A stretch of 64,000 nt of DNA from assembly GCA_017410525.1 (NCBI GenBank), contig JAFQQQ010000002.1, forward strand, positions 205,591 through 269,590. Reading direction: 5' to 3'. This DNA is from Bacilli bacterium (lineage in GTDB: Bacteria > Bacillota_I > Bacilli_A > RF39 > UBA660). Shown here piece after piece: positions 13,437-40,320 of this stretch (the stretch's first letter is position 1; every line of letters starts with the position of its first letter). The position numbers and the translations under genes were made by a program. The notes beneath the pieces were generated by a model that was not told the DNA's origin, made no database searches, and saw only the letters and a program-made list of their open reading frames with translations.

Positions 13437-14075
13437 ATGAAAGTAATTGAGTTGGAAGAAAAATATATTTTAGAATATATAAAATATATGATTTCTAGTT
13501 TTAAAACAATACCTATAGAAATAAATAATGCTAAATATCATCATAATACAAGTTATTCTGATGTACCTTTGGTTTTAAAACAAGGTATTTTGTCGGTGTC
13601 AGAATTAAATAGATTAGGTATAAAAAAATATTCTCCTGAAATATTAAATTTATGGAGTGACATAGAGTCACATATTAATGGTATAGATTCAATATCATTA
13701 TCTGTAGTTGGTTTAAAAGATTTATATGTAGATGAATTTGAATATGATCCGTTTATACCAACAAAAGTAGATTTGAATATTTCAAGTGATATATCTACAC
13801 TAAGATCAAGTATACATTATGGAAATGAATTTTTATGTTATGAAAATATAGGAATTGATAAAATAAAATCAATTGATATAAGATTACTAGAATTAATTGA
13901 AAAAAGAAAAGATTTTACAATAAAAGATATAATAAATAAATATAATTGTTTAAAGGATGTTGCATTAGCAATTAAAGAAAATAACTTAGATATTCCTTTT
14001 AGAGAAATGTCTAATGATAATTGTGCATTAGATATAACTAAAGTGTCAGAGATGCCTAAATTAATTTTAAAATAA
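13437..14075 (+). CDS. Hypothetical protein
   Basis: 212-aa ORF with RBS GGAGGGAG, followed by terminator hairpin CAAATGAAA..TTTCATTTG + T-run at about 14078-14108. Confidence 0.45.
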   Translation: MKVIELEEKYILEYIKYMISSFKTIPIEINNAKYHHNTSYSDVPLVLKQGILSVSELNRLGIKKYSPEILNLWSDIESHINGIDSISLSVVGLKDLYVDEFEYDPFIPTKVDLNISSDISTLRSSIHYGNEFLCYENIGIDKIKSIDIRLLELIEKRKDFTIKDIINKYNCLKDVALAIKENNLDIPFREMSNDNCALDITKVSEMPKLILK

Positions 14076-14147
14076 AGCAAATGAAAAAATTTCATTTGTT
14101 TTTTTAAAATATTTATATATAATAGAGATAGAAAAAAGGTGATTTAA

Positions 14148-14324
14148 ATGATATATATAGTAAGACATGGACAGACGGATTATAATGTAGAAGGTAGATA
14201 TGGTGGTAGGATAGGTGTAGAATTAAATATTAAAGGAATTGGGCAATCACATATCATTCATAATGAATTAAAGAATATAAAGTTTGATAATGAAAAACTA
14301 AAAGAATTACAAAAATATATATAA
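14148..14324 (+). pseudogene. Histidine phosphatase (phosphoglycerate mutase family) N-terminal remnant
   Basis: Encodes MIYIVRHGQTDYNVEGRYGG (RHG catalytic motif) but stops after about 59 aa. Further short unframed fragments follow to about 14470. Confidence 0.4.
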
Positions 14325-14522
14325 TAGTTCATGACAATATTGATTTTGACTCTTATTTTTCAAGTTATATATTATCTAAAATACTTCAAAGTTTAAACAC
14401 AAATGCTATTTTTACTATTTTTGATGATTATAATATTGGTGATGATGATAGAAAAATAATAGATGGTTATAAAAAAGAAAAAAATAGAATTAAACAAAAA
14501 TAGAAAAAAATGTAAAAAGGTG

Positions 14523-14557
14523 TTGACAAACAAAAAAAATTAGAGTATTATTTAATG
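14523..14557 (+). promoter_or_regulatory. Sigma-A-type promoter: TTGACA-17 nt-TATTAT
   Basis: Exact -35 hexamer TTGACA at 14523-14528, a 17-nt spacer and TATTAT -10, situated about 40 nt upstream of the RBS of the small Cys-rich ORF. Confidence 0.5.
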
Positions 14558-14593
14558 TAATATTTTTATCTTTTTAGACAAAGGAGGAATATT

Positions 14594-14740
14594 ATGGTTA
14601 ATTGCTTTAACATAGAAAGATCAGTGATAAAATCAAAATCTAATGTTATTTGCAACAGCTTCTGCTGCAATACTTTAGTATGCTTTTCAATTCTTTCTTG
14701 TCTAAATGAAAAGATGAAAAGCGATATAGCAAAGTCTTAA
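14594..14740 (+). CDS. Cys-rich 48-aa small ORF (MVNCFNIERSVIKSKSNVICNSFCCNTLVCFSILSCLNEKMKSDIAKS): candidate RiPP precursor or regulatory leader peptide
   Basis: Strong RBS AAAGGAGG 7 nt upstream of the ATG. Six Cys in 48 residues. The stop codon lies in the loop of the downstream terminator hairpin. Not in the supplied ORF track because it is under 60 aa. Confidence 0.45.
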   Translation: MVNCFNIERSVIKSKSNVICNSFCCNTLVCFSILSCLNEKMKSDIAKS

Positions 14741-14771
14741 TGACTTTTCTTGTCGCCTTTCATCTTTTTTC
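14708..14771 (+). terminator. Intrinsic terminator / attenuator hairpin overlapping the 3' end of the small ORF
   Basis: GAAAAGATGAAAAGCGA (14708-14724) pairs with TCGCCTTTCATCTTTTTTC (14753-71), followed by a T-run. The left arm encodes the last codons of the small ORF. Confidence 0.55.
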
Positions 14772-14803
14772 TTATAAAAATATAAAAGGAAAAGGAGGGA
14801 TTT

Positions 14804-16237
14804 ATGATAACTATTGAAAAATTATTAAATCATGTAAATACTTATAATCCTGGAGAAGAAGAAATTATAAGAAAAGCTTATGAGTATGCTGATTATTTAC
14901 ATGGAAATCAAATTAGACAAAGTGGAGAACCATATATTACACATCCTTTGAATGTTGCTTATATTTTATCTGAAATGCATGCAGATAGAGATACAATATG
15001 TGCTGCACTCTTACACGATACTCTAGAAGATACAAATACAACTAAAGAAGAAATAGCTGATTTATTTAATAAAGAAATAGCTAACTTAGTAGACGGAGTA
15101 ACAAAGATAAGTAAAATGAATTTTTCTAGTAAAGCAGAACAAAATTTAGCAAACACAAGAAAAATCATAACAGGGCTTACAGAAGATGTAAGAATAATAA
15201 TAATAAAATTAGCCGATAGACTTCATAACATGAGAACTTTAGAATTTAAATCTGAATTTAAGCAAAAAGAAAATTCTTTAGAAACAATGGAAATATTTGT
15301 ACCGCTTGCTTATTATATAGGTGCTTATAGAATAAAAAGTGAGCTAGAAGATATATCTTTTAAATATTTAAAACCAGATAAATATAAAGAAATAGAACAT
15401 AGAATAAATAACTCTAGTATTGAAAATAATAATTGCTTAAATGAAATGTTATTGAATATAGAAGAAATATTAAATAATGAGTCAATACCACATGAAATAA
15501 AAGTTAGAACAAAAAATATATATGGAATATATAAAAGAATAGATAATGGAGAAAACAAAATAAGTGATATACACGATTTATTATCTTTAAAAATAATGGT
15601 AGATGATATAAAAAATTGTTATATAACACTAGGTCTTATACATGATAAATATCATCCAATAAATGGAAGATTTAAAGATTATATTTGTAATCCTAAAACA
15701 AATCTATATAAATCTTTACATTCTACAGTATTTGGGCCTAATGAAAAATTAGTACAAACACAAATAAGAACATTTGATATGGATAAAATAGCATCCTTTG
15801 GTTTAACAGCATATTGGGATATAAATAAAGGTGATGCAAGATATACTATGCAACAAGATTTAAGAGATAATTTTCAATTTTTTAAATCATTATCAGATAT
15901 AAATGTTATGTTTAAGGATAATCAAGATTTTGTATCTCAAATAAAGAATGAATTATTCGCAAATAAAATTTATGTGTATACTACTAACGGTAAAATAATA
16001 GAATTACCTAAAGGATCAAATATTATTGATTTAGCTTGTTATATGGACATAGAAAATGTATTAATAGGAGCTAAAGTAAATGATGAAATAGTTCCTATTG
16101 ATTATATTTTAAAAAATAAAGATAGGGTAATACCACTTATAGATGAATTATCTTATGGATATAGAGAAAGTTGGATAGAAAAAGCGAATACAGTTTATGC
16201 TAAAAAGAAAATAAAGGGGTTAATAGAGAGTAGGTAA
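14804..16237 (+). CDS. RelA/SpoT homologue paralog (HD hydrolase + synthetase-like + TGS), truncated after TGS (477 aa)
   Basis: HD motif LLHDTLEDT, synthetase-domain block GRFKDYICNPKTNLYKSLHSTV..QIRTFDM and a TGS-like domain (IYVYTTNGKIIELPKGSNIIDLA). It lacks the C-terminal helical/ZFD/ACT domains of long RSHs. RBS AAAGGAGGGA. Confidence 0.75.
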   Translation: MITIEKLLNHVNTYNPGEEEIIRKAYEYADYLHGNQIRQSGEPYITHPLNVAYILSEMHADRDTICAALLHDTLEDTNTTKEEIADLFNKEIANLVDGVTKISKMNFSSKAEQNLANTRKIITGLTEDVRIIIIKLADRLHNMRTLEFKSEFKQKENSLETMEIFVPLAYYIGAYRIKSELEDISFKYLKPDKYKEIEHRINNSSIENNNCLNEMLLNIEEILNNESIPHEIKVRTKNIYGIYKRIDNGENKISDIHDLLSLKIMVDDIKNCYITLGLIHDKYHPINGRFKDYICNPKTNLYKSLHSTVFGPNEKLVQTQIRTFDMDKIASFGLTAYWDINKGDARYTMQQDLRDNFQFFKSLSDINVMFKDNQDFVSQIKNELFANKIYVYTTNGKIIELPKGSNIIDLACYMDIENVLIGAKVNDEIVPIDYILKNKDRVIPLIDELSYGYRESWIEKANTVYAKKKIKGLIESR

Positions 16238-16240
16238 AAA

Positions 16241-17401
16241 ATGTTATTTAGATTAGTTGCAATTCGTTGTCATAAAAATATAATTTTCTGTGACAGTTTT
16301 AATGAAAACTTTGAAAAAATACAATTAGCAATTCCATCAGAACTTTTCAACTCATTAGGACTTAAAGTAGGTAGTGTAATTTCTACAAATTATCAAATTA
16401 CTAAAAATAAATATGGAAATGATTTGTATTTCATAAATGATGTACAAAATGTATCAAATCATAATAAAAATATATCTTTTAAATCTATAAATACAAAATT
16501 ATCATCCATGAATCAATCTAGTTTTATTAGTGCATTAAATGGTGGAGTTAATTTAAAATATTGGGAAATGAAACAAAAACTTTTAGAAGAAATTAGAAAA
16601 TTTTTAGTAAATAGAAGTTACATAGAAGTAAATACTTCATTGTTAATGGATAATAGAGGTACTAGTACTGTTAACCCTATGCAAGTAAATGGTAAATACT
16701 GTGGTAATAAATATTTAAAAATAACTCATGAATTAGAATTAAAAAAAATTTGTTATCTTACTTTAAAATCATTATTTGAGATAGGATATGTAACAAGAGA
16801 TGTATATTCTACTAGTAAATCTGCTAATCAATATTTAACATTTGAATTAGTTGCACCTATAGAAGATACATTAACAGCAGAAGAATTATATATTTATGTT
16901 TATGAGATTGCAATTAAGTTGGCTGAATCATATGGTATTTCTTATAATGAGATATTTAATAAAATAGAAACAGTGGATGTTTTAAAATTATATTTATCAA
17001 ATCATAAAAAGATTGATAAGAAAGAATTCCTTGAGTTTTATAAAAAACTATTAGAATTAGAAAAAAATATAATATATGTAAATGCGCCTACCAATACTCC
17101 TTTAGCGAAAGAATCAGAATACGGAATACCTTTAGAAACAAAATGGGCTATAGGAAATAGGGGTATAGGTCATGGATATTATGATCAAAATCAGTTATCG
17201 GTTATAGAAAATTTATTTGAATTACAAAAAGATGCACTAAAAGAAAAAGGGATAGATTCCAGTGTTGATAAAGAATACTTAATGACTTTAATGTATGCAG
17301 GTATAGATACAAAAAGTTTAAATATAGGGATTGATAGATTTATGTATAAATTTTTAGGTTTAGATCACGAAGAGAAAGCAATAAAAATATTAGGATTATA
17401 G
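16241..17401 (+). CDS. Class II aminoacyl-tRNA-synthetase-like protein (LysRS-II/EpmA(PoxA)-like core with N-terminal OB-like region; degenerate motifs)
   Basis: Motif-1-like EIRKFLVNRSYIEVNTSLL, motif-2 region YLKITHELELKK..FEIGYVTRDV..ANQYLTFEL (FRNE/HNPEFT positions substituted) and motif-3-like IGIDRFMYKFLGL. Compared from memory with EpmA/LysRS. Confidence 0.55.
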   Translation: MLFRLVAIRCHKNIIFCDSFNENFEKIQLAIPSELFNSLGLKVGSVISTNYQITKNKYGNDLYFINDVQNVSNHNKNISFKSINTKLSSMNQSSFISALNGGVNLKYWEMKQKLLEEIRKFLVNRSYIEVNTSLLMDNRGTSTVNPMQVNGKYCGNKYLKITHELELKKICYLTLKSLFEIGYVTRDVYSTSKSANQYLTFELVAPIEDTLTAEELYIYVYEIAIKLAESYGISYNEIFNKIETVDVLKLYLSNHKKIDKKEFLEFYKKLLELEKNIIYVNAPTNTPLAKESEYGIPLETKWAIGNRGIGHGYYDQNQLSVIENLFELQKDALKEKGIDSSVDKEYLMTLMYAGIDTKSLNIGIDRFMYKFLGLDHEEKAIKILGL

Positions 17402-17411
17402 AGGTGAACAA

Positions 17412-18671
17412 ATGAAAGAAGATAAAATATTATTTTTGTATCCGCCGACAGTTTATGCTAACCATAGTATGTTTAAGCATTTTACTTATTTTGGCGAAAC
17501 GATAGATGTTATAAGTAGATATTATAAAAATATAAAAGTTTTAGACTGTGCAGTTGAACAAATAGAACAAAAGATAATATTTAATAATTTTAAAGATAGT
17601 AATTTATTAGTAATGGAAATAGAACCTTATAACATAGATGTTGCACTATCTTTAGGAAAATTATATAAATCATTCAACAGTAAAGGAAAAATTATAGTAT
17701 ATGGTACTGCAATTACAATAATGCCCAATTATTTTATGAAACAACATTTATTTGATTATATAATTAATGATGGTAATTTTGCTGTTGGTATATTGGGGGT
17801 AATGAATGAAATTTTAAATACAGAATATCCTTATGAAGTTAAGAGTAAATATTATGAATTAATAAATGGTGAGTATATAATGAAGGGTGATAATTTTCAA
17901 CTTCCAATAAAAGATTGGGGTGTTGGATATAATAAATTATTACCATTAGAAAAATATAAATTTTATAATAATGGTATGTTTGAATTAACTGTTCAAACCG
18001 GTTGCCCTTTTAATTGTTCTTTTTGTTCTGAAAAAATATTATTTGATAAGTATTGTGGAACAAAATATAGAGATGTTGAAGATATTATTAAAATAATGAA
18101 AAATATTAATGACGATTTTAATGAAATATATTTTTCTGCTACAACAATGACAGCAAATAGAAAATGGACTGAAAATTTATGTACTAGATTAATTGAAGAA
18201 GGTAATAAAATGCCTTGGAGAACAGTTACTAGAATTGATTGTGTTGATGAAGAATTGTTAAAATTAATGAAAAAATCAGGATTAAAGAAAATTTGTTTTG
18301 GTGTTGAAACGTTTGATGATAAATTATTAGAAGAGATAAATAAAAAACAAAATGCAAATAATGTAATTAATATATTAAAATTATGCAATAAATTAGGTAT
18401 TAAAGCCAAAGCTTTACTTATGTTGGGTATACCAGGACAAACAGCAAAAAATGTTTTTGATACAGTGAAAATATTAAAAGATTTAAATGTGGAATATAGA
18501 TTTAAAGAATATTCTCCTATTCGTGAAGCACATATATTAGATTCTAAAAATTCTGATATCTCTGATATGATTCCTATTTTTAGTAGATATGAATATAGAA
18601 CAAGTAGTATTCCTGGAATAACTAGTGAAGAATATATGGAATTACTTTTTCCTACAGAATATGTGAGGTAG
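17412..18671 (+). CDS. Radical SAM enzyme, probably class B (N-terminal B12-binding-like domain)
   Basis: CxxxCxxC motif TGCPFNCSFCSE in the middle of the protein, preceded by an about 190-aa Rossmann-like N-domain. Confidence 0.65.
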   Translation: MKEDKILFLYPPTVYANHSMFKHFTYFGETIDVISRYYKNIKVLDCAVEQIEQKIIFNNFKDSNLLVMEIEPYNIDVALSLGKLYKSFNSKGKIIVYGTAITIMPNYFMKQHLFDYIINDGNFAVGILGVMNEILNTEYPYEVKSKYYELINGEYIMKGDNFQLPIKDWGVGYNKLLPLEKYKFYNNGMFELTVQTGCPFNCSFCSEKILFDKYCGTKYRDVEDIIKIMKNINDDFNEIYFSATTMTANRKWTENLCTRLIEEGNKMPWRTVTRIDCVDEELLKLMKKSGLKKICFGVETFDDKLLEEINKKQNANNVINILKLCNKLGIKAKALLMLGIPGQTAKNVFDTVKILKDLNVEYRFKEYSPIREAHILDSKNSDISDMIPIFSRYEYRTSSIPGITSEEYMELLFPTEYVR

Positions 18672-18678
18672 ATTAGCA

Positions 18679-19707
18679 ATGATTGAACATTTAAAAAGTG
18701 GTTTGTCAATATCGACACATTTAGGTTGTGGATTAAAGTGCTCGTATTGTATTTTGTCAACCATGGACGGTTTTAATGAGGGCCCGGTATTACAAATTAA
18801 ACCCAAGGATTTAATATTTAAATTATTTAATGAATATGAATTTTATTGCAAAAATAAAACACCTTTAATGTTAAATAATAGAACAGATCCATTTTTACCA
18901 ACTGTAACACCGTATACTTTAGAAATTTTAGATTTATTAATTGAAAAGCAAGTCGAGTCTCCAATTATAATAATTTCAAAGTTTGCGCCGCCTACAGTTT
19001 TAAAAAAATATTTTTCTTTATTAAATATTTGTTACTTTTATTCTTATTCTGGTATAGATACTGATTTTAACTATAATAAACTTAAAAGTGATTTACAACT
19101 AATAAAAAATGTTGTTCCTAGGTCTTCTAGATTTCATTATTTTAGACCGATAATACCAGGAGTGAACGATGATTTTGAATTTATGAAAAAAATATTAAAT
19201 ATATTTAGTGAAAATGAATTTGATGCCACTGTAATTGCTGGATTTAGGGTAACTAATCTAAATAAACATTTAATAAAAAAGGAAACGATAGATGTTGAAA
19301 AAATTGATTATAATCATAAATTAGTAGATAGTAGTATATATGAAATAAATAAAATATTTAATGCCGAAAATTATCGTATATTTAGACATACTAGTTGTGC
19401 TATAGCAAACCATTTTAATTCTTTTAACAAATTAAATTATTTTTCAAAATGTGGTCATTGCTTTGAATCATGTCCTAACTATGACAACTGTTTAAATAAA
19501 AGAATAAATATTAAAGATATTTTAAAAGAACTTAAAGAAAAATTTGGTAATGAATATAATTTTAAAATTAAAGATAACAAAATTGAAATATTGTCTTTAT
19601 GTACTCAAGAATTAGTTGCTTATATAAAAAATGCTTATGGGTGTGAGATTATTGCAACCAATGTTAAATTATCAAAATCTGAAGAGGTGATTTTAGGTGA
19701 AAAATAA
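18679..19707 (+). CDS. Radical SAM enzyme with C-terminal Cys-rich (SPASM/twitch-like?) region
   Basis: N-terminal GCGLKCSYC (CxxxCxxC). The C-terminal cluster is CAIANH..CGHCFESCPNYDNC. Confidence 0.55.
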   Translation: MIEHLKSGLSISTHLGCGLKCSYCILSTMDGFNEGPVLQIKPKDLIFKLFNEYEFYCKNKTPLMLNNRTDPFLPTVTPYTLEILDLLIEKQVESPIIIISKFAPPTVLKKYFSLLNICYFYSYSGIDTDFNYNKLKSDLQLIKNVVPRSSRFHYFRPIIPGVNDDFEFMKKILNIFSENEFDATVIAGFRVTNLNKHLIKKETIDVEKIDYNHKLVDSSIYEINKIFNAENYRIFRHTSCAIANHFNSFNKLNYFSKCGHCFESCPNYDNCLNKRINIKDILKELKEKFGNEYNFKIKDNKIEILSLCTQELVAYIKNAYGCEIIATNVKLSKSEEVILGEK

Positions 19708-20248
19708 TATTATAGTGGGATGCGATTTACATAATACTTTGTTATTAAGCAATGAAGCTTGGATAAAAGCATTTATAAGTCTTAATTCTAAATTGGATAT
19801 AAATGAAATTTCTAATTTTATATATAGTAAAAAATCAAGAAAAGAAATGGCTAGATTATATAATATTGATTATAATGTATTATTAAATACTTATCATAAA
19901 AATTGTATTCCTAATATAAAATTATTAAATTTTATTAAAGAACTTAAAGTTAAAGGGTTTCCTATTGTTTTAATTTCTTCATCAAGCGAAGAAAAAGTAA
20001 AAAAAGATTTAGAGAAACTAAAAGAATATATTTCTTTTGATAAAATTTATACAAAAGAAACATTTTCTAAAAGTGTTTCTAAAGATTGGGATATGGTTAT
20101 AAAAGAATATAGAGCAAAATTTATGGTATATATAGGAAATGACTATGATGAAGATATAATACATAATGATAAAGTAATATCTATTCTTTCAGGACATTTT
20201 TTTACAGAATTGAAAAAAAACGGTTTTTTAGAAGAAAGAGGTAAATAA
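19697..20248 (+). CDS. HAD-like hydrolase (atypical motif I)
   Basis: N-terminal VGCDLHNTLL (DxHxT in place of DxDxT), Rossmann-like remainder. Overlaps the previous gene by 11 nt. Confidence 0.4.
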   Translation: MKNNIIVGCDLHNTLLLSNEAWIKAFISLNSKLDINEISNFIYSKKSRKEMARLYNIDYNVLLNTYHKNCIPNIKLLNFIKELKVKGFPIVLISSSSEEKVKKDLEKLKEYISFDKIYTKETFSKSVSKDWDMVIKEYRAKFMVYIGNDYDEDIIHNDKVISILSGHFFTELKKNGFLEERGK

Positions 20249-20250
20249 AA

Positions 20251-21168
20251 ATGGAAATATATTTAAAAAAAGAAGATATAGAAAGTTATCTAATAAATCA
20301 GGAAGAAAATATAAAAAACATGATTGATAATTTAGATTCAAGTTGGCCACATTATAATGCAGTGAAAAAATTATTAGAAGAGACTATGTTAGAAATAAAA
20401 AGAAAAGATATACATTGTAATGCTGTTTTATCTTCTACTAAGCATGAACGAAAAATAGAAAAATATGTAAATTGGGTTGAGGTTTATAGACTAGCAAATT
20501 ATCATTTTTCAAAATATACTAGTAGTAATACTTCTTATAGTGAAGGATTGTTTTCAACATTACTTGCGTTAAATAGTATGTATATACATAATAAAAAAAT
20601 TAAGGATATTGGAATAATTGGTTGTGGTCCAGGAAGAAGCGTTTTAGATTTTTCTTTAGCTTATCCAGATGCCACTATTTATGGTTTAGATTATTCCTTA
20701 GTTTCCTTAGTTTTAGCAAGAAATATTGTTAGTACAAATAATAAAAATATTGAGATTATAAGAAGAGATGATGAAGTAGTATTAGATAAAGTTGAAAGCT
20801 TTAATAGGACAAATTGTAAATGGGGAATGTTTGATTTAACTAAATCTAATTTAAATGAAAAATTTGATATCGTAGTATGTTCAAATGTAATAAATTTAAT
20901 GCCTAATCATAAAGATGCTATAAATAAAATTTATGATATGATAAAACCTAATGGATATTTAATATATGCTGATTTAACTGGTTGGAGATTAGATAGAAAG
21001 AAAGAACAACAATTACTTTCTGATAAAAAAGCTATAAAAAATAGTTTTGAAAACGTAGGCTTTGAAACTATAGAATGTTTTGATGGTGGACCATATATAG
21101 AAAAAGAAAATAAAGATAATTTCACGTTTTATAAACAAACTTATTATATAGGAAGGAAGGTAAAATGA
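20251..21168 (+). CDS. Class I SAM-dependent methyltransferase
   Basis: Motif I IGIIGCGPGRSVLDF, motif post-I DYS, 305 aa. Confidence 0.65.
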   Translation: MEIYLKKEDIESYLINQEENIKNMIDNLDSSWPHYNAVKKLLEETMLEIKRKDIHCNAVLSSTKHERKIEKYVNWVEVYRLANYHFSKYTSSNTSYSEGLFSTLLALNSMYIHNKKIKDIGIIGCGPGRSVLDFSLAYPDATIYGLDYSLVSLVLARNIVSTNNKNIEIIRRDDEVVLDKVESFNRTNCKWGMFDLTKSNLNEKFDIVVCSNVINLMPNHKDAINKIYDMIKPNGYLIYADLTGWRLDRKKEQQLLSDKKAIKNSFENVGFETIECFDGGPYIEKENKDNFTFYKQTYYIGRKVK

Positions 21169-21824
21169 AAAATATAATATTATTAAGTGGACCTGATAAA
21201 ACAAAATATTTTGCTAAGGAAATATCAAAAGAAATAAAAAATAACGTTACGCATCCAACAAATATGGTTGTAATACCGGCTGATCCAAATAATTATGAAA
21301 AAAATGATAAACAATTTAAAGGGAATGAAAGTGTAGTTGGAGTATTTAAAACATTTAAAAAAATATTTCCAGATATAAATATTGTTTTGTTAGATAATAG
21401 AGTAGATTCTACAAGTGGATTAAACAAGTTGAAGAAAGCAGATATTATTTATCTACTTGGTGGAAATCCTTTTATTCAATTAGAATACTTGCAAAAAAAT
21501 AATTATAGTGATACAATATGCAGCACAAATGCATTGGTTATGGGAGTTAGTGCTGGATCAATGAATTTAGCTGTTGATTCTTATTATTCTAAAGATGAGG
21601 ATTATCCAGAAAGTGTAATTTATAAAGGATTAGGAATTGTTGACATGACTATAGATCCACATTTTGATATTAACAATGAAGAACAGGTTAAAGAAATAAA
21701 AGTTAATTCAAAAGATAGAAAAATTATTGGTTTACCAAATGATTCAGCAATAATTGTTTCAAATAATAATATAAAATATATTGGTGATATTTATTTATTT
21801 GAAAATGGTGAATTAACTAATTAA
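21165..21824 (+). CDS. Peptidase S51 (dipeptidase E / cyanophycinase-like) family protein
   Basis: GGNPF..., the nucleophile elbow GVSAGS and a downstream His region. Overlaps the previous gene by 4 nt. Confidence 0.55.
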   Translation: MKNIILLSGPDKTKYFAKEISKEIKNNVTHPTNMVVIPADPNNYEKNDKQFKGNESVVGVFKTFKKIFPDINIVLLDNRVDSTSGLNKLKKADIIYLLGGNPFIQLEYLQKNNYSDTICSTNALVMGVSAGSMNLAVDSYYSKDEDYPESVIYKGLGIVDMTIDPHFDINNEEQVKEIKVNSKDRKIIGLPNDSAIIVSNNNIKYIGDIYLFENGELTN

Positions 21825-21855
21825 TTAGTTAGTTTACAAGATAGGGGGAATTGGA

Positions 21856-23433
21856 ATGAATTGGGCATTAGAAGAAGCAAAAAAATTAGTTGAAAAGCAT
21901 CCTGAAAAGGAAGAATTTGTAATCGCATCGGGGGTTAGTCCATCTGGATTTATACACATAGGAAATTTTAGAGAAATCGTTACTACATTTTTTGTAGGTA
22001 AAGAATTAGAAAATTTAGGGAAAAAAGTTAGATTTATATTATCGTTTGATGATTTTGATAGATTTAGAAAAGTTCCTAAAGGAATGCCGGAAAGTTATAG
22101 TAAGTATATAGGAATGCCTTATACTAGTATACCTAGTCCATTTAGTGAAAATAAAACTTATGCTAAAGAAATGGAAGATATATTTGTAAGTGAATTAAAT
22201 AGACTAGGAATTAATCCTGAAACCATATCTCAAACAGAACAATATAAAAGTGGAAGATATGATGATAAAATTAAATTAGCTATGGAACAAAGAAAAAAAA
22301 TATTTGATATAATGGCTAATTATAAAACTCAAGAATTTACAGAAGAAGATAGAAATAATTATTATCCTATAAGTTTATATTGTGAAGAATGTGGTAAAGA
22401 TTCAACAACTATATTAAATTATAATGATGTAACAGGTGATGTAGAATATAAATGTACTTGTGGGCATCATCATATTCAAAATATAAATAAATGTGGTAAT
22501 ATAAAGTTACAATGGAAAATTGATTGGCCAATGAGATGGCAAAAAGAAGGGGTAATTTTTGAACCAGGTGGTAGAGATCATTCTGCAGAAAATGGAAGTT
22601 ATGCTGTATCAAAAGAAATATCTAAACGAATTTTTGAATATGAAGCACCATCCTATGTAGCCTATGATTTTATTGGTATTAAAGGCGCTAATGGTAAAAT
22701 GGCTTCATCAACAGGAAATGTTTTAACATTAACTGATTTATTAAGTGTTTATGATAAAAATATAATATTATGGTTTTATGCCAAAAATAGACCTAATCAT
22801 CAATTTAATATAGCGCTTGATGAAGATGTATTAAGATTCTATACAGAATATGATAGGATGGTAAAAGCATATTTTGAAGGTAAATTAGATGATAAAAATT
22901 CTAGTATTATATCATTAACAGGAGTAACTAGTGGGTATGTTAATAATCCTAATTTTGGATATATAGCAAACTTTTTACCGATGGTAAGTTATAAAGAAGA
23001 AGCACTTGCAAAATTATTAAGTAAAGAAAATATTGATTGTTCTACATTATATTTTAAAAATAGATTACTAAGAGCAACCAATTGGTTAGAAAAATATAAT
23101 AATAGTAAAATAAAAGTGTTAGATGAATTTAATCAAGAATATTATGAAACATTAAGTGATGAAGAAAAAGAATGGTTAGAAAAAACTTTAGTTGTTTTAC
23201 AAAATGAATATGAAACTACTCAGGATTTACAAACAGATTTATATGCTATTGTAAAAAATGGTATAGAAGATTCTAAAGAATTAAAAAATAAACAAAGAAG
23301 ATATTTTCAGATAATTTATAATTTAATTATAGGAAAAGATAATGGACCAAAAATGGGATTATTGCTATCTGCAATGGATTATGAAGTTGTAAAATCTAAA
23401 TTGCAAAAATCAAAAGAAAAAAAATTAAGATAA
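21856..23433 (+). CDS. lysK: Class I lysyl-tRNA synthetase (LysK-type)
   Basis: ASGVSPSGFIHIGNFREIVT (HIGH-equivalent of class-I LysRS) and KMASSTGN (KMSKS). 525 aa. Only 32 nt after the previous gene, so no T-box leader is possible. Confidence 0.8.
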   Translation: MNWALEEAKKLVEKHPEKEEFVIASGVSPSGFIHIGNFREIVTTFFVGKELENLGKKVRFILSFDDFDRFRKVPKGMPESYSKYIGMPYTSIPSPFSENKTYAKEMEDIFVSELNRLGINPETISQTEQYKSGRYDDKIKLAMEQRKKIFDIMANYKTQEFTEEDRNNYYPISLYCEECGKDSTTILNYNDVTGDVEYKCTCGHHHIQNINKCGNIKLQWKIDWPMRWQKEGVIFEPGGRDHSAENGSYAVSKEISKRIFEYEAPSYVAYDFIGIKGANGKMASSTGNVLTLTDLLSVYDKNIILWFYAKNRPNHQFNIALDEDVLRFYTEYDRMVKAYFEGKLDDKNSSIISLTGVTSGYVNNPNFGYIANFLPMVSYKEEALAKLLSKENIDCSTLYFKNRLLRATNWLEKYNNSKIKVLDEFNQEYYETLSDEEKEWLEKTLVVLQNEYETTQDLQTDLYAIVKNGIEDSKELKNKQRRYFQIIYNLIIGKDNGPKMGLLLSAMDYEVVKSKLQKSKEKKLR

Positions 23434-24895: not shown

Positions 24896-25001
24896 TTATT
24901 TTTTAACACATTTTTGTTGAAATGAGTTGTTGGAATGTGCTAAAATATATTTGTAATTAAAGATATGTTGCAGATTATTAAATCGATTGGGGGAAACGAT
25001 T

Positions 25002-26807
25002 ATGGAAAATAAAAAATTTGTTTTTGATAAGGAAGGCAGTAAAAAAATTACGGGATTTGCTTCTATAGATAAACCTTGGAATAGATTTTATAGAAAAGAA
25101 CCTATTAGAGAAATTAAGTTAAATCAAACTATTTATGATATGGTATTTGGTGAAAACATTAATAATATGGATGACGATGCTCTGGGATATTTAGGAGTTA
25201 GCTTAACTTTCAATCAATTAAAAGCTAAAGTTGACCAATTTGCAGATGCGTTACTTAAATCTGGTTTAAATAGCGGTGACGTAGTTTTAATGGGGGTTTC
25301 TAATTCTCCTGAATCTATCATAGCATTATTAGCATTAAATAAAATTGGTGTAGTTTCTAAGTGGTTTGATATTAGAGCAAGTGAAAAAGATATAGAAACA
25401 TATGCAAAATCAAGTAATTGTAATTATATGATTGCATTCGATATGTTAATACCTAAAATAGAAAAAACATTATCGAATGTGGATTTTAATAAAATAATAA
25501 TAATAAATCCAACAGATTCTTTACCAAAAATTAAACAAGAATTATATAAACTTCAATGTAAGAAAAATGGAACATATGTAAAAATGCCTTCGGATAAGAG
25601 ATTTGTTAGGTTTAATAATTTTATGAAATTAGGAAGCAATAATTCAAAATTAGAAAGTGTCCAATTTGATGCCACAAAACCTTCAATTATGATACAATCA
25701 AGTGGTACTACGGGTAAACCAAAAACTATAGTTCATTCTGATTCTTCTTGTGTTAATTGTACTCATAAAATGGCTTATACAGATTTACCGTTAGGTAGAG
25801 GTAAAAAGATGTTAGTAGCTTTACCGCCTTGGATTGCATATGGATTAGGTAATGCCATAATAATGCCTTTATCATATGGAACTAAGGTAGAACTTAGCCC
25901 TAATTTTGATCCTAATGCTGTATTAAAAAATATAGGTAAGTTTACTATTTCTTTTGCAGCTCCATTTCATTATCGTTATTTAAAAGAACATTTTTCAGAA
26001 TTAACTGAAAAGCAAAAAGAAGCTTTTAAAATGGTTGAATGCTTAGCGTCTGGTGGAGACAAAATGTCTATAGAAGAAAATAACGATTTTGAGAAGACCT
26101 TTGGCGTTGTACTTATAAATGGTTATGGTAACAATGAAGGTTGGGGGGTATTAACTGTAAATCCTACACTTCATAATAAATATGGTACAGTTGGTATACC
26201 TAAATTTGGCGATTTAGTAATCAGTTATGATACTGACAATGAAAAAGAAAATGCATATGGTGAGTGGGGAGAAATATGCTCATTAACTGATACTTCAATG
26301 TTGTATTACGAAGATAATTTAGAAGAAACTAAAAAAACTTTACAAACTCATCCAGATGGTAAAGTTTGGATACATACTGGAGATTTAGGTTTTATAGATG
26401 AAGATGGTTTTATTCATTTAGGTGGAAGAGCTAGACGAGTTATTGTAAGGCTAGGATTTAAAATATCTGCATATACAATAGAAGATAAATTATCTGAACA
26501 TCCAGCAGTAAAAGAATGTGTTGCGGTTTCTGTAAAAGATGCTGAAGAAGAACATGTTCCAATGGTATACATAATTTTAAAAGACGAGTATAAAGCATTA
26601 TCTGATACAATAGAAAATGATATATATGTAAAATTGTCACAAGAATTAAAAGAATATGAAATACCAAAATATTTTAGAATTGTTGATAGTTTACCATATA
26701 CTCAAAATGGTAAATATGATTTTGTTTCTTTAGAAAAATATGGTAACGAATATGTTGATAGTTTAGATTCAAACGATAAAATATTTAAAAAGAAAATAGG
26801 TGATTAA
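25002..26807 (+). CDS. AMP-dependent synthetase/ligase (adenylate-forming enzyme, acyl-CoA-ligase-like)
   Basis: AMP-binding P-loop SSGTTGKPKT, GYG.NE and the C-terminal hinge. Start moved to ATG 25002 after RBS TGGGGGA. Confidence 0.8.
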   Translation: MENKKFVFDKEGSKKITGFASIDKPWNRFYRKEPIREIKLNQTIYDMVFGENINNMDDDALGYLGVSLTFNQLKAKVDQFADALLKSGLNSGDVVLMGVSNSPESIIALLALNKIGVVSKWFDIRASEKDIETYAKSSNCNYMIAFDMLIPKIEKTLSNVDFNKIIIINPTDSLPKIKQELYKLQCKKNGTYVKMPSDKRFVRFNNFMKLGSNNSKLESVQFDATKPSIMIQSSGTTGKPKTIVHSDSSCVNCTHKMAYTDLPLGRGKKMLVALPPWIAYGLGNAIIMPLSYGTKVELSPNFDPNAVLKNIGKFTISFAAPFHYRYLKEHFSELTEKQKEAFKMVECLASGGDKMSIEENNDFEKTFGVVLINGYGNNEGWGVLTVNPTLHNKYGTVGIPKFGDLVISYDTDNEKENAYGEWGEICSLTDTSMLYYEDNLEETKKTLQTHPDGKVWIHTGDLGFIDEDGFIHLGGRARRVIVRLGFKISAYTIEDKLSEHPAVKECVAVSVKDAEEEHVPMVYIILKDEYKALSDTIENDIYVKLSQELKEYEIPKYFRIVDSLPYTQNGKYDFVSLEKYGNEYVDSLDSNDKIFKKKIGD

Positions 26808-26862
26808 ATCTATTTTCTTTTTTGTCGTTTTATGATATACTGAAATCATAGGAGGGTAAGAA

Positions 26863-29082
26863 ATGTTGTTTGGTAATATAAATAATACAATGCTATTTTC
26901 TTTGATTTCAGTTTTTTACATGATTTGCTTTGCAATTGGATTTTTTGCTCGTAAAAAAGTTAAATCTGTAGAATTAACGATATTTAAAGGTCTAATTTTA
27001 ACTAATTTAATTTCGTTGATAGTAGAAATATTATTAGTAATATTGATTTTAAATAATAGTAATTTTTTAAATATAATGTTAAGATTTTTTAATGTGTGTA
27101 TTTTTTCATATGTTTGGTTTTTCGGACTCTATAGTTATTTTGTTTTAAAAAGAAGTAAGGAACTTAATTCTAAAAGCTCTTTATTCGTTCTTTATTTAAT
27201 ATATTATTTTGTCTGTTGTATTGGAATGATGATTTCAAAAGTTGAATTGAATCCTGTAGATTTTATGCAATATTCAAAGGGGCCTAGTGTTCAAGTTTTA
27301 TTTATCGCAGTTGGAATGATTGTAATGGTAACAATTATGATGCTTTTAATAAATATAAAAAATATAAAGAAAATAAAATGCACTCCAATAATTATGTTCG
27401 TTTTGTTTATTGGTATAAATGCCATAATTCAATTTATATGGCCTCACATTTTATTGGCTAATTCTTTATTCAGTTTTGTTACATTTTTAATGTACTTTAC
27501 AATAGAAAATCCAGATATAAAGATGGTAAACCAATTAGAACTCGCTAAAGATCAAGCAGAAAAAGCAAACAATGCTAAAACTGATTTCTTAAGTAATATG
27601 TCTCATGAAATAAGAACTCCATTAAATGCTATAGTAGGATTTAGTCAATGTATAGAAAATGCTACTAACTTAGAAGAAGCAAAAGAAGATGCTAAAGATA
27701 TAGTAATGGCTTCTAATAACTTACTTGATATAGTAAATGGTATACTTGATATAAGTAAGATTGAAGCAGATAAGATGGAAATAGTTAATACTGAATATAA
27801 CCTAAAAGAAATATTAGATAATTTAGTAAAACTTATTATACCTAGAATAGGTGAAAAAGATATTGAATTAAAAACTCATTTTGCTGAAGATTTACCAGAG
27901 GTATTATATGGAGATAGTGGTAAAGTAAAACAAATTATTACTAATGTTTTAACTAATGCTGCTAAATATACTGAACAAGGTGAAATTAACTTTAAGGTTA
28001 ATTGTGTTAACGAAAAAGATAAATGCAGATTAGTTATATCTATAAGAGATACTGGTAGAGGTATTAAAACTGAACAAATAGATAAATTATTTAATAAGTT
28101 CCAAAGACTTGATGAAGACAAAAATACAACTACTGAAGGTACTGGACTTGGACTTGCTATTACTAAGAGACTTGTTGAAATGATGGGTGGTAAAATAGTA
28201 GTTCAAAGTGAATATGGAGAAGGTTCTACTTTTACAATTTATTTAACTCAAGAAATAAGAAATGGTTTATATAAAAAAGAAGAAGTTATAGAAGAAGAAA
28301 TAAGTTTTGATAGTAAAAAAGTATTATTAGTAGATGATAATAAATTAAATATTAAAGTAGGTACTAAAATATTAAGAGAATATAATCTAGATATAACACC
28401 TTGTGAAAGCGGATTTGAATGTATAAACAAAATAGAAAATGATAATAATTATGACATTATACTTTTGGATATTATGATGCCTAAAATGAGTGGTGTTGAA
28501 ACTTTAAAAAGATTAAAACAAATAGATGGTTTTGATACTCCTGTAATAGCACTTACAGCAGATGCTATTCAAGGCAGAGAAAATAAATATTTAGAAGTAG
28601 GATTTAGTGGTTATTTATCTAAACCTATTGAACATAGTGAACTAAAAAAGGTATTATCTAAATATTTAATAAGTGTTAAAAAAGAAGAAATTGAAATATT
28701 TGATGAAATCAAAAAAGATAAAAAAGATATTGATTATTTAAAAGAAAGTGGTATTGATGTAGATAGTAGTTTAGAACTTTTAGGAGATATGGAAACATAT
28801 AATGAAACTTTAAAAGATTTCTTAACTGAATGTGAAACAAGACTTCCTAAAATGAAAGAACACTTATCTAATAATGATTCAAATAATTATGCAATACTTA
28901 GCCATGCTTTAAAGAGTGATAGTAAATATTTAGGTTTTAAAAAACTTGCTGAACTATCTTTAGATCATGAATTAAAAGGTAAAGAAAATGATTTAGAATA
29001 TATTAAAGAAAATTCTAACGAACTTATGGATGAAGCAGAAAAAATAATAAATATTATTAAAAATTATTTAGGAGATGAATAA
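26863..29082 (+). CDS. Hybrid sensor histidine kinase (multi-TM sensor + HisKA + HATPase + receiver + C-terminal HPt)
   Basis: About six N-terminal TM helices, H-box [17 protein letters not shown]-boxes (GTGLGLAI), a receiver domain ([21 protein letters not shown]) and HPt-like [12 protein letters not shown]. Confidence 0.8.
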
Positions 29083-29461
29083 TATGGAAAAAGCAATTAT
29101 AGTAGCTGATGATTCTATGATAGTTAAAAATATCGTAGAAAAGGCAATTGATGATGAATATATGGTTTTAAAAGCATCAAATGGTAAAGAAGCAATAAAA
29201 CATATTACTGATAAAAAATATGAAATAATTGGAATGTTACTTGATTTAAATATGCCAGAAAGTGATGGATTTATGGTATTAAATTATTTCAAAAACAATA
29301 ATTTATTTAAAAAATATCCAATTGTTATAATATCTGGAGATGATACAAAAGAAACTATAGAAAAAGCTTTTACATACGATATAGTTGATATGCTTAATAA
29401 ACCATTTTCTAAAGATAATGTTAATAGTATGGTTAATAAAATTATTAATTTTAAAAGCTAA
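29075..29461 (+). CDS. Single-domain response regulator (CheY-like receiver)
   Basis: IVADDS...LLDLNMP..DG..K..P receiver signature. The true start may be the ATG at 29084 (MEKAII). Followed by terminator AACTTAACTG..AGTTAAGTTTTTTT at 29464-29490. Confidence 0.75.
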
Positions 29462-29583: not shown

Positions 29584-30546
29584 ATGTTAATTATGAAAAA
29601 TGAAATAATTTTATTTGAAAATCAAGATGTCAAACTTGATGTAAATATAAAAGATGACACAGTATGGTTAAATGCAAAGCAAATAGCTGAATTATTTGAT
29701 AGGGATTATAAAACAATTAGAAAACATATTAATAATGCATTGGAAGAAGAATTAAAAGATGAAGTGGTTGTCGCAAAATTTGCGAATACCACAAAACATG
29801 GTGCAATTAAAGAAAAAAACCAAACTCATATGGTAGATTATTACAATTTAGATGTAATAATATCAGTTGGTTATAGAGTTAAATCTAAAAATGGTATTAT
29901 ATTTAGAAAATGGGCAAATAAAATATTAAAAGAATATTTATTAAAGGGATATGTAGTAAATCAAAAAAGATTAGAATATTTAGAAAAAACTGTTAAGTTA
30001 ATAGATATAGCTAATAGGATTGATGATGAATTAGAAGGTAATGAAGCTAAAGAAATATTAAAAGTAATAGGGGATTATTCTAAAGCCTTAGATTTACTTG
30101 ATAATTATGATCATAAAGATATTACAAAAGTTAAAGGTAGTATTAGTGATAAAAAGATAACTTACAAAGAATGTATAGAAATAATAAATAAATTAAGATT
30201 TAATAGTGATAGTAAGTTATTTGCGCTAGAAAGAGATAAGGGATTAGAATCTATAATAGGTGATATTTATCAAACATTTGATAAAAAAGATGTATATAAA
30301 AGTATTGAAGAAAAGGCTTGTAATTTTCTTTATATGATTATTAAAAACCATGTATTTATAGATGGTAATAAAAGAATAGGTGCGACATTATTTATATATT
30401 TCTTACAATTTTATAATATTTTATATAAGAATGGTAAACAAGTAATAGATAATAATACATTAGTTGCTTTAACACTCCTAATTGCACAATCTAATCCAAA
30501 AGAGAAAGAATTAATAATAGATTTAGTTATGAATTTCTTGGAATAA
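29584..30546 (+). CDS. RhuM-family N-terminal domain fused to Fic/Doc toxin domain
   Basis: The N-terminus resembles the RhuM family (IILFENQDVKLDV..DDTVWLNAKQIAELF). The C-terminus carries the Doc-type motif HVFIDGNKRIGATLF (HxFx(D)GNKR). Confidence 0.6.
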   Translation: MLIMKNEIILFENQDVKLDVNIKDDTVWLNAKQIAELFDRDYKTIRKHINNALEEELKDEVVVAKFANTTKHGAIKEKNQTHMVDYYNLDVIISVGYRVKSKNGIIFRKWANKILKEYLLKGYVVNQKRLEYLEKTVKLIDIANRIDDELEGNEAKEILKVIGDYSKALDLLDNYDHKDITKVKGSISDKKITYKECIEIINKLRFNSDSKLFALERDKGLESIIGDIYQTFDKKDVYKSIEEKACNFLYMIIKNHVFIDGNKRIGATLFIYFLQFYNILYKNGKQVIDNNTLVALTLLIAQSNPKEKELIIDLVMNFLE

Positions 30547-39912: not shown

Positions 39913-39989
<77 letters not shown>

Positions 39990-40003
39990 TCTTATTAAAA
40001 TAT

Positions 40004-40080
40004 GGCCGGTTGGTGAAGCGGCTTAACACACATGCCTTTCACGCATGCATTCACGGGTCCGAATCCCGTACCGGTCACCA
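40004..40080 (+). tRNA. tRNA-Glu (anticodon UUC)
   Basis: Acceptor GGCCGGT/ACCGGTC, anticodon stem CATGC/GCATG with loop CTTTCAC, T arm ACGGG-TCCGAAT-CCCGT, CCA encoded. Resembles the Bacillus tRNA-Glu sequence, judged from memory. Confidence 0.8.
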
Positions 40081-40091
40081 TATGTTAATTA

Positions 40092-40118
40092 ACCCTTGAT
40101 TTTCAAGGGTTTTTATTT
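40092..40118 (+). terminator. Terminator hairpin AACCCTTGA..TCAAGGGTT + T-run after the tRNA pair
   Basis: Perfect 9-bp stem, 4-nt loop, TTTTTATTTT. Confidence 0.6.
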
Positions 40119-40128
40119 TGTCGTTTGA

Positions 40129-40153
40129 GTTTTGGTCTTGTTTTTGGTCTTGT
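40129..40153 (+). repeat. Tandem direct repeat TTTTGGTCTTGT x2
   Basis: GTTTTGGTCTTGTTTTTGGTCTTGTAA. Related copies recur at 41365-41401. Confidence 0.6.
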
Positions 40154-40253
40154 AACTCGTTTTTTTTTTGAACTTTTTTATTTCCTTTTGTCAATATAAA
40201 ATAAAAAACGAAAAAAACATTGAAAAAAAGATCAAAAATATAGAAGTTTTTAA

Positions 40254-40320
40254 ATGGTGACCGGTAAGAAACCCGGACCCACTTATAGCTATAGTGAATA
40301 CCTGCGTGAGTGTGTGTTAA
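40254..40320 (-). pseudogene. Degenerate inverted copy of tRNA-Glu (3' half), pseudo-tRNA fragment
   Basis: TGGTGACCGGTA...GTGAATACCTGCGTGAGTGTGTGTTAAG matches the reverse complement of the tRNA-Glu 3' end and anticodon-arm region with an about 13-nt insertion. The T-arm cannot fold. Confidence 0.45.

Follow-up and report, generated by a model that had tools for sequence, protein, structure and literature searches.

The window analysed here is a stretch of 64,000 nucleotides from the genome of a Bacilli bacterium (assembly GCA_017410525.1, contig JAFQQQ010000002.1, positions 205,591 to 269,590), and the subject of this report is a gene at 14804 to 16237 of the window, which encodes a shortened RelA/SpoT homologue (RSH) of 477 amino acids (aa). 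Judged by its sequence, the gene is a paralogue, confined to one lineage, of Rel, the bifunctional stringent factor. Its product probably hydrolyses (p)ppGpp independently of the ribosome and carries a conserved pseudo-synthetase, which makes it [Hs] in Atkinson notation. The original prediction had left the choice between a hydrolase-only enzyme and a pyrophosphotransferase with an altered acceptor. We prefer the hydrolase because the catalytic glutamate of the synthetase has been exchanged for glutamine, as in the engineered SpoT variant E319Q, and this exchange is fixed in a monophyletic family, because the residues of the hydrolase (HD) domain are invariant, and because an intact full-length Rel co-occurs in relatives. 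We regard the gene as a paralogue since a full-length Rel with an intact synthetase co-occurs with it in three related genomes. Full-length Rel would then make the alarmone on starved ribosomes of these gut Bacilli and the short RSH would remove it away from the ribosome. In this protein the hydrolase site would be scaffolded or allosterically modulated by the pseudo-synthetase and TGS domains, similar to Acinetobacter baumannii SpoT.

Domains and active sites of the 477-aa protein

The gene and its domains have the following positions in the window:

14792..14799, + strand: Shine-Dalgarno sequence of the RSH gene, AAGGAGGG, read from the sequence and graded strong
14804..16237, + strand: truncated RSH gene, 477 aa, ATG start and TAA stop, predicted [Hs]
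14876..15313, + strand: HD hydrolase domain, aa 25-170 (Pfam HD_4, E 9.5e-41)
15506..15820, + strand: pseudo-synthetase RelA_SpoT domain (SYNTH), aa 235-339 (Pfam PF04607, E 2.3e-28)
15755-15757, + strand: codon of Gln318, which replaces the catalytic glutamate (residue mapping to Bacillus subtilis Rel)
15968..16129, + strand: TGS domain, aa 389-442 (Pfam TGS, E 1.2e-09)
16130..16234, + strand: C-terminal helix, aa 443-477, corresponding to helix 1 of the helical domain in Rel

The HD motif LHDTLEDT, the synthetase block with GRFKDYICNPKTNLYKSLHSTV, KNIYGIYK and QTQIRTF, and the TGS domain were all present as originally predicted. Among proteins of solved structure, B. subtilis Rel (PDB 6yxa, E 1.7e-113) matches best. 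The 477-aa protein aligns colinearly with it from residue 2 to 473 (Rel 7-480), and the identity to solved Firmicutes Rel proteins is 38-40%. We compared an AlphaFold model (mean pLDDT 81.5) with solved structures using Foldseek and found the best matches with 6yxa (TMq 0.68) and the catalytic domains of Staphylococcus aureus Rel (7oiw, rmsd 2.3 Å), and a further one with A. baumannii SpoT (7qpr, probability 1.00, TMq 0.56). In this model the synthetase fold is retained, with a TMt of 0.93 against 7oiw. The TIGR00691 spoT_relA model of NCBIfam matched with 502.6 bits (cut-off 499.2) over model positions 1-449 of 687, and the scores for the NCBIfam SpoT and RelA equivalog models were far under their cut-offs. 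Of the features that define a long RSH we thus observed the HD domain, the SYNTH domain following it and the TIGR00691 score, and the full C-terminal region is missing.

The protein had been described as ending about 250 aa short of a long RSH, without helical, zinc-finger (ZFD) and ACT regions, and both the alignment and the Pfam scan agree with this, leaving only TGS and one helix. It ends with the 'KIRQF' helix which opens the helical domain of Rel, around 240-250 aa short of the Rel proteins of the same lineage (718-724 aa). This helix aligns to B. subtilis Rel 450-480, and the AlphaFold model places helices at 457-460 and 464-476. The Pfam scan of the 477-aa protein found neither AH/RIS (PF19296) nor ACT (PF13291), both of which are present in a 724-aa paralogue from relatives. 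The domains lost are the helical, zinc-finger and ACT/RRM domains, which tether Rel to the ribosome. As the next, unrelated gene starts 3 nt past the stop codon, no remnant of the C-terminal region is present. Read-through under genetic code 4 was ruled out, the stop being a TAA with the unrelated gene 3 nt further on.

All hydrolase residues are conserved, namely R38, H47, H71, D72, E75, D76, D138, H141 and N142 (R44, H53, H77, D78, E81, D82, D144, H147 and N148 in B. subtilis numbering), and by these residues the HD active site is complete and of the Mn-dependent type. The synthetase site is altered. Compared to B. subtilis Rel we observed five substitutions: G240 to V234, H244 to N238, S247 to G241, R269 to K263 and E324 to Q318. 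The residues R235, K237, D258, R289, K291, D292, Y302, H306, Q320 and R322 are kept (R241, K243, D264, R295, K297, D298, Y308, H312, Q326 and R328 in B. subtilis). A possible loss of the catalytic glutamate had been suspected from QTQIRT in place of EVQIRT, and the residue equivalent to E324 is indeed Gln318. The original prediction had named as its counter-case a truncated orthologue with an intact glutamate and an intact guanine-binding loop (G-loop); the G-loop is intact, the glutamate is lost and the truncation is not an artefact.

Measured against a bifunctional Rel ([HS]), the protein has the complete set of hydrolase residues and an RxKD motif of the Rel type. Of the D264/E324 pair and the G240-R-x-K-H motif it keeps the aspartate (D258), and the glutamate, G240 and H244 are changed. 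The same glutamate to glutamine change was engineered as E319Q in SpoT, where it abolished synthesis and left hydrolysis intact (PMC6085430); Gln318 is its natural counterpart.

The truncated family and full-length Rel

We searched the database at E <= 1e-30 and obtained at least 8000 matches; the family figures are based on the best 120. These were 438-493 aa long, with 119 of them between 466 and 493, and 71-94% identical to the 477-aa protein; the only labels among them were 'Mycoplasma sp. CAG:611' and 'Clostridium sp. CAG:710'. Homologues of 466-511 aa, likewise 71-94% identical, number more than 120 and share the synthetase substitutions. When species-representative genomes were scanned, 55 loci emerged. 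Of these, 54 lie in gut metagenome assemblies, the titles being mostly 'uncultured Bacilli bacterium' and in some cases 'Mycoplasma/Clostridium sp. CAG' or others. The remaining locus is the full-length Rel of Neobacillus mesonae, which is 40% identical. By GTDB naming we take the lineage carrying the truncated RSH to be RF39-like. Our literature search, which did not extend to the 13 subfamilies of long RSH proteins in the 2020 census (Jimmy et al.), found neither the truncated family nor its leader described.

The motifs VRTKNIYGIYK, DLLSLKIMV and QTQIRT are near-invariant across the family. Among representatives at 50% identity, all sequences without the glutamate are shorter than 515 aa except P0122 (545 aa), and every representative longer than 580 aa carries G-R-x-K-H...E. 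In a neighbour-joining tree of 166 sequences the 52 sequences without the glutamate form a single clade (bootstrap 193/200), which joins the tree beside the full-length Rel of the same low-GC Bacilli lineage. Divergent short members show further erosion of the synthetase site (glutamate to K, L or H, D264N, R295M, Y308H), and the HD residues RHHDEDxxDH are unchanged throughout the family, the divergent members included. Three short representatives which keep the glutamate (P0132, P0214 and P0261) were considered as family members and rejected, as all of them group with full-length Rel; the P0132 cluster consists of fragments of variable length on short contigs. P0219 and P0203 look like separate truncations.

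Mean pairwise identities in the truncated family were 84.5% for HD, 83.6% for SYNTH and 66.6% for TGS, so TGS is its least conserved domain. The corresponding values for the full-length Rel family were 85.5%, 93.5% and 89.5%. We obtained dN/dS values of 0.05-0.10 for HD, 0.05-0.12 for SYNTH, 0.14-0.40 for TGS and 0.07-0.19 for the whole gene. Some genomes hold two truncated copies: L032 and L053 lie on one 605-kb contig (97% identical), L048 and L061 on one 90-kb contig (85%), and L022 and L054 in one metagenome-assembled genome (83%). Where the 5' region is present, which excludes L054, each of the duplicate copies has its own promoter and U-run terminator. No leader open reading frame (ORF) was detected for L061.

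Three of the loci (L045, L047 and L057) have, on one contig, the truncated gene and, 3-7 kb upstream of it, a gene for a 724-aa Rel, at the following positions:

L045 4655-6829; L047 1326-3500; L057 2891-5065: co-located full-length Rel

These proteins carry the domains HD_4, RelA_SpoT, TGS, AH_RIS and ACT, and dtd (D-Tyr-tRNA deacylase) follows. A separate full-length Rel adjoining dtd was found in these three loci and in L064. In the closest relative with a long contig, the full-length P0287 and the truncated P0003 (86%) are probably both on one 80.5-kb contig. The full-length family as a whole spans 718-724 aa at 72-100% identity and lies in a rel-dtd-hisS-aspS context. Its synthetase site is intact in 120 of 120 members. 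The ED motif of the hydrolase is intact in 110 of the 120; D82 is replaced by E, C, V or L in the other 10, which include the three co-located copies, and E81 is changed to K in two. This suggests, from the motifs, that subfunctionalisation may be in progress, with a reciprocal loss of hydrolysis in a sub-lineage.

The window itself was found to contain no second RSH. A 739-aa ORF at 26863-29082, guessed from its length to be the genuine rel, was ruled out as a hybrid histidine kinase. The description of the RSH as stand-alone thus holds for the 64-kb window and fails for the relatives, where the genuine rel is nearby. A bifunctional Rel would be expected as the sole long RSH in a dtd/hisS/aspS context; here it is the paralogue that stands beside dtd in relatives. 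The remark that the neighbourhood is not a usual one for rel proved correct: the truncated gene lies between ackA and a gene cassette described below, whereas full-length Rel adjoins dtd/hisS/aspS. With a second copy beside the genuine rel in relatives, 'subfunctionalised paralogue' fits better than the earlier term 'neofunctionalised'.

Known systems and competing readings

Splitting alarmone synthesis and hydrolysis between long-RSH paralogues is a textbook case of subfunctionalisation. Most of the documented examples come from Beta- and Gammaproteobacteria, and in Moraxellaceae the process has gone as far as a hydrolase-only enzyme. If our reading is true, the truncated family would be a second, independent and widespread case, in gut Bacilli with reduced genomes, and would provide a natural minimal hydrolase (HD, pseudo-SYNTH and TGS) with which to ask which domains hydrolysis and its regulation need. 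Annotations of the family as 'GTP pyrophosphokinase' or 'bifunctional synthetase/hydrolase' would then probably be wrong.

The sequence features of an [Hs] protein are in place, with intact HD residues, a pseudo-SYNTH domain and a synthetase paralogue in relatives. Removal of ZFD and RRM from B. subtilis Rel raises hydrolysis and lowers synthesis, and the synthesis-dead variant D264G shows elevated hydrolysis (PMC7797070). The natural protein combines the change of SpoT E319Q with the loss of the ribosome-binding domains; those constructs are artificial, whereas here both changes are fixed under purifying selection. In A. baumannii SpoT the Core and TGS scaffold the hydrolase site, beside a pseudo-SYNTH (PMC9974481), and these modules are the ones kept in the 477-aa protein. 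This Moraxellaceae SpoT[Hs] (PDB 7QPR; PMC9974481) shares with the protein an active HD domain, here predicted from sequence, and a dead pseudo-SYNTH. Both derive from a long RSH beside a separate synthetase paralogue, and in both TGS would be repurposed from tRNA reading. The two differ in that A. baumannii SpoT has around 700 aa, with helical, ZFD and RRM domains that activate hydrolysis and are all absent here, and has lost most nucleotide contacts of the synthetase, whereas the 477-aa protein is changed only at the glutamate and a few neighbours. They also differ in origin, as the truncated family groups with the Rel of low-GC Bacilli and not with proteobacterial SpoT in the neighbour-joining tree.

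RshC[HS] (Atkinson et al. 2011, PMC3153485) is likewise a second, divergent Rel copy in Bacilli with the same domain architecture, and the 477-aa protein, which ends within the helical domain and keeps TGS, agrees with it in this respect. According to the published description RshC occurs in six Bacillus strains and is [HS] with both sites intact (PMC3153485), whereas the truncated family comes from uncultured gut metagenomes and lacks the synthetase glutamate. The closest solved relatives are the Firmicutes Rel proteins (6YXA, 7OIW and RelSeq 1VJ7), to which the catalytic N-terminal fold is near-identical in the model. They possess helical, ZFD and RRM domains, E324, G240, H244, R269 and the TGS His420, all of which the 477-aa protein lacks. 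Small alarmone hydrolases (Mesh1, RelH, PbcSpo) resemble it in the predicted stand-alone, ribosome-independent hydrolysis, and its HD domain is homologous to their structures (PDB matches 3nr1, 7qoc and 5vxa). They consist of a single HD domain of ~180-200 aa, whereas the 477-aa protein keeps SYNTH, a linker and TGS and so has three domains.

Several points weigh against a pure hydrolase. Gln318 could leave a residual or altered synthetase activity, and nearly all nucleotide-binding residues of the synthetase site are kept (R235, K237, D258, R289, K291, D292, Y302 and H306). By the substitution rates SYNTH is evolving as slowly as HD, a constraint that exceeds the need of a passive scaffold. 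The C-terminal domains activate hydrolysis in A. baumannii SpoT (PMC9974481), and strong hydrolysis by a protein without them is therefore not guaranteed. Finally, the co-occurrence with full-length Rel was established in relatives and not in the window's own genome. Given the retained residues and the slow evolution of SYNTH, the pseudo-synthetase may plausibly bind a ligand or act allosterically.

The same observations have to be weighed for an enzyme that is still a bifunctional Rel, whose synthetase has just been weakened or retuned by Gln318 and the other substitutions, for example towards constitutive, ribosome-free production of little (p)ppGpp or pGpp. The remaining ATP- and GDP-binding residues and the RxKD motif, the strong purifying selection on the synthetase domain and the TIGR00691 score above the cut-off would all fit such an enzyme. 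We nevertheless consider it unlikely: the identical exchange kills synthesis in SpoT (PMC6085430), loss of ZFD and RRM lowers synthesis in B. subtilis Rel (PMC7797070), divergent members carry K, L or H for the glutamate and lose D264, R295 or Y308, and a full-length Rel with a perfect synthetase site co-occurs in relatives.

The hydrolase might also serve the genes which follow it and with which it is probably co-transcribed:

16241..23433, + strand: seven-gene cassette

The intergenic gaps from the RSH gene through the cassette are 3-30 nt. Genes 1 to 4 encode a ligase resembling class II lysyl-tRNA synthetase (LysRS) without an anticodon-binding domain, a B12-type radical SAM protein, a 342-aa protein for which no family match was found and a HAD phosphatase. 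Genes 5 to 7 encode a methyltransferase, a peptidase S51 and a bona fide class I LysRS. The cassette may be a pathway for a lysine-derived metabolite with its own or a resistant LysRS, and the hydrolase could, for instance, protect from the stringent response to a cassette product that acts as lysine antimetabolite or targets LysRS. The same cassette order was found behind the truncated RSH in L007, L065 and L066/67, despite a divergence of the proteins to 52-74% identity, and with gaps of 3-29 nt this adjacency speaks for such a role, as does the presence in other relatives of different cassettes ending in another aminoacyl-tRNA synthetase (aaRS) at the same place. The idea that the RSH context is entirely unconserved was revised in view of L065 and L066/67. 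We nevertheless rate a service to the operon as quite unlikely. The RSH family (best 120 matches at 71-94%, 55 species-level loci) is far wider than the cassette family, which comprises 31 proteins compared to hundreds for the truncated RSH; at many RSH loci a cassette is absent or is of another type that ends in a different aaRS; and the leader described below travels with the RSH and not with the cassette. Conversely, L068 and L069 carry the cassette core and class I LysRS, there fused to a tRNA-binding domain, without the RSH, and for this reason we rejected the RSH as a component of the cassette. A class I LysRS always accompanies the core, also where identity has dropped to 39-43%, the genes are rearranged and the RSH is absent. 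As cassette and RSH each occur without the other, their adjacency is lineage-specific and does not define the function of the RSH. Between the window and L007 the cassette proteins are 96-99% identical and the RSH only 94%, and the cassette homologue P0442 is a fusion of radical SAM and LysRS-like protein.

The pyrophosphotransferase of the original prediction would transfer to a new acceptor, either another nucleotide or a tRNA 3' end, in the manner of toxSAS enzymes and perhaps together with the adjacent aaRS-like genes. It has in its favour the TGS domain, the LysRS-like gene that begins 3 nt downstream and the toxSAS enzymes themselves, which are reported to pyrophosphorylate tRNA CCA ends. 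The glutamate needed for any pyrophosphotransfer is absent, however. In B. subtilis Rel the histidine H420 of TGS stacks on the CCA end of deacylated tRNA (PMC7797070). Its equivalent in the 477-aa protein is Tyr413 (codon 16040-16042, + strand), adjoining a deletion of two residues, so that the tRNA-reading histidine of a bifunctional Rel is missing too; at this position 76 of 164 members of the truncated family have a histidine, compared to 99 of 100 full-length Rel proteins. The loss of this histidine and the weak constraint on TGS argue against tRNA recognition. Further evidence against the toxSAS type is the fusion to an intact hydrolase domain and the lack of any toxin-antitoxin arrangement or antitoxin-like partner at the locus. 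The aaRS and radical SAM genes, moreover, are independent of the RSH, the cassette occurring without it and most RSH family members without the cassette. Altogether we regard a new acceptor as very improbable, and the tRNA 3' end in particular is not supported by these observations.

That the gene is an artefact or a decaying pseudogene, a rel shortened by sequencing or assembly error or by a recent nonsense mutation, has next to no probability, as the one point in its favour, a protein ~250 aa shorter than Rel, is outweighed by the equal length in hundreds of independent assemblies and the substitutions shared in the family (which also disposes of the sequencing-truncated orthologue in the original prediction's counter-case), the unrelated gene 3 nt past the stop, a whole-gene dN/dS of 0.07-0.19 and the retention of two truncated copies in some genomes (L032/L053, L048/L061).

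The upstream leader and the surrounding genes

Upstream of the RSH gene we identified the elements of a putative regulatory leader:

14523..14551, + strand: sigma-70-type promoter, TTGACA-17 nt-TATTAT, the best match in 14050-16400 with 11 of 12 positions
14580..14587, + strand: Shine-Dalgarno sequence of the leader ORF, AAAGGAGG, read from the sequence
14594..14740, + strand: leader ORF of 48 codons and a TAA stop, MVNCFNIERSVIKSKSNVICNSFCCNTLVCFSILSCLNEKMKSDIAKS; 6 Cys, among them a CC pair
14708..14770, + strand: intrinsic terminator, a long hairpin followed by U6, minimum free energy (MFE) -28.2 kcal/mol, z = -7.87

The terminator hairpin was found with ViennaRNA; its long bulged stem escapes a simple terminator scan. 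The stop codon of the leader (14738-14740) lies within the hairpin loop. Many related loci have an equivalent promoter (TTGACA-N16-18-TAnAnT) 200-250 nt upstream of the RSH. The leader ORF of the window is conserved in L007, L001/2, L009 and L008, and analogous short ORFs led by a Shine-Dalgarno sequence occur upstream of the RSH in 33 loci; by sequence they form 25 groups unrelated to one another. Their Cys content is 6.6-7.4% compared to 1.22% in the proteome (P=2e-25), a 5-6 fold enrichment, and in 15 of the 25 groups the Cys residues are clustered (P=0.003), usually ~16 codons before the stop. In around 30 loci a hairpin with U-run precedes the RSH start codon by 20-40 nt and the leader stop is located inside the hairpin or at its 5' edge. 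The promoter, the short ORF led by a Shine-Dalgarno sequence and the terminator expected of a ribosome-mediated attenuator are thus all present and conserved across species, with this layout in most of the related loci.

In free leaders the terminator was part of the MFE structure in 29 of 30 cases. Masking the Cys codons with a ribosome let the terminator hairpin persist, and masking the stop codon left at most 30% of the hairpin pairs in 22 of 30 leaders; in the leader of the window the hairpin was lost under this mask. We found no antiterminator of the trp/his type in these leaders: the exposed segment measures 3-28 nt, and its duplex with the 5' arm averages -2.3 kcal/mol compared to -16 kcal/mol for the terminator (z = -0.4). 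An Rfam search of the 5' leader gave no riboswitch or T-box at gathering score and, at E<=10, only chance hairpins resembling microRNAs. We also considered the Cys-rich ORF as precursor of a ribosomally synthesized and post-translationally modified peptide for the downstream radical SAM enzyme and ruled this out, since the ORF also accompanies the RSH at loci with another cassette or none.

We tentatively propose, at somewhat less than even confidence, that expression of the RSH is gated by leader translation in a device similar to that of pyrBI. The strong promoter would drive the Cys-rich ORF, whose stop codon lies inside the intrinsic terminator. A ribosome reaching the end of the leader would block the hairpin, and the hydrolase, together with the cassette in the window genome, would be transcribed. 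A stall before that point, such as a shortage of Cys-tRNA might cause at the Cys codons, would allow the terminator to form and leave the hydrolase off. As no antiterminator is detectable, stalling is predicted to turn the gene off and not on.

The pyrBI leader of Escherichia coli is a ribosome-mediated attenuator. It is mentioned in PMC5021804, a ribosome stopping near an intrinsic terminator represses termination (PMC4824070), and short poly-Cys ORFs of mycobacteria are Cys-responsive attenuators (bioRxiv 10.1101/834739). The RSH leaders share with these systems a short ORF, here putatively translated, overlapping an intrinsic terminator, so that a close ribosome would suppress termination, and with the mycobacterial ORFs the clustered Cys codons as candidate sensing element. 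They differ in their target, which is a predicted alarmone hydrolase and not a biosynthetic operon. If true, the leader would be a candidate for a new regulatory route which couples alarmone removal to translation.

Some characteristics of the leaders speak against this proposal. The bases of Cys codons are paired more often than other leader bases (0.72 compared to 0.52) and the rarer codon TGC is over-used (52% compared to 17%); RNA structure, and not codon sensing, may therefore account for some of the Cys enrichment. Bacilli are also reported to uncouple transcription from translation, and the coupling may be weak. In the minimum-energy fold the Shine-Dalgarno sequence of the window leader pairs with a pyrimidine stretch, ATTCTTTCT, inside the leader ORF, and in about two thirds of the leaders the Shine-Dalgarno or start region pairs with a pyrimidine-rich segment 75-100 nt downstream, which often contains CATGC. 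With this pairing, only the first co-transcriptional ribosome might be able to translate the leader, and part of the excess of TGC codons might have the same origin.

Hydrolase and leader can be combined into a wider picture, which is possible although we find it doubtful: the division of labour between RelA and SpoT would have re-evolved in gut Bacilli, with a starvation input through the Cys leader. Full-length Rel would be the synthesiser, its hydrolase ED motif already decaying in a sub-lineage, and the truncated paralogue the hydrolase. The ribosome-sensing C-terminus would have been shed and the starvation input shifted to the mRNA leader, such that a low level of charged tRNA would block synthesis of the hydrolase and (p)ppGpp would stay high. 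The synthetase domain without its glutamate would then be a nucleotide-binding sensor instead of a dead scaffold.

Other noticeable features concern the surrounding genes. The slot between the truncated RSH and a module of AMP-binding enzyme and histidine kinase holds different enzyme cassettes in close relatives: PPDK_N, a 200-aa protein, radical SAM and a class II 2b aaRS in L001/L002 (12030-16378), S51, a pyridoxal-phosphate (PLP) decarboxylase, an aminotransferase, a phosphodiesterase and a MetRS-like protein in L008 (12173-19195), and radical SAM, S51 and a GNAT fragment in L048 (13687-18681). By its contents the slot resembles a hot spot for accessory cassettes linked to an aaRS. Another recurrent neighbour of the truncated RSH is a module of an AMP-binding (acyl-adenylate-forming) enzyme followed by a hybrid histidine kinase, in some cases with a response regulator; it lies at 24987-29461 in the window and occurs also in L001, L017, L020, L029, L035, L046-L048 and L066. 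In L017 a tandem of histidine kinase, AMP-binding enzyme, histidine kinase, AMP-binding enzyme and histidine kinase lies directly upstream of the RSH.

On the upstream side, a 212-aa protein without Pfam match is encoded at 13437-14075, right after acetate kinase, with 58% identity to L008 3591-4226. At 14148-14324 we noted by eye a 58-codon remnant starting MIYIVRHGQTDYNVEG, with the RHG motif of histidine phosphatases (phosphoglycerate-mutase family). Lying between the RSH promoter and the gene for the 212-aa protein, it has the appearance of a truncated pseudogene. Further downstream in the window a RhuM/Fic-domain protein follows the response regulator (29584-30546), six tRNA genes are clustered at 39913-42791, and a phage-type integrase lies on the - strand at 62866-63867, near the window end where the GC skew collapses. 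The RhuM/Fic gene, the tRNA cluster and the integrase may mark the edge of a mobile element.

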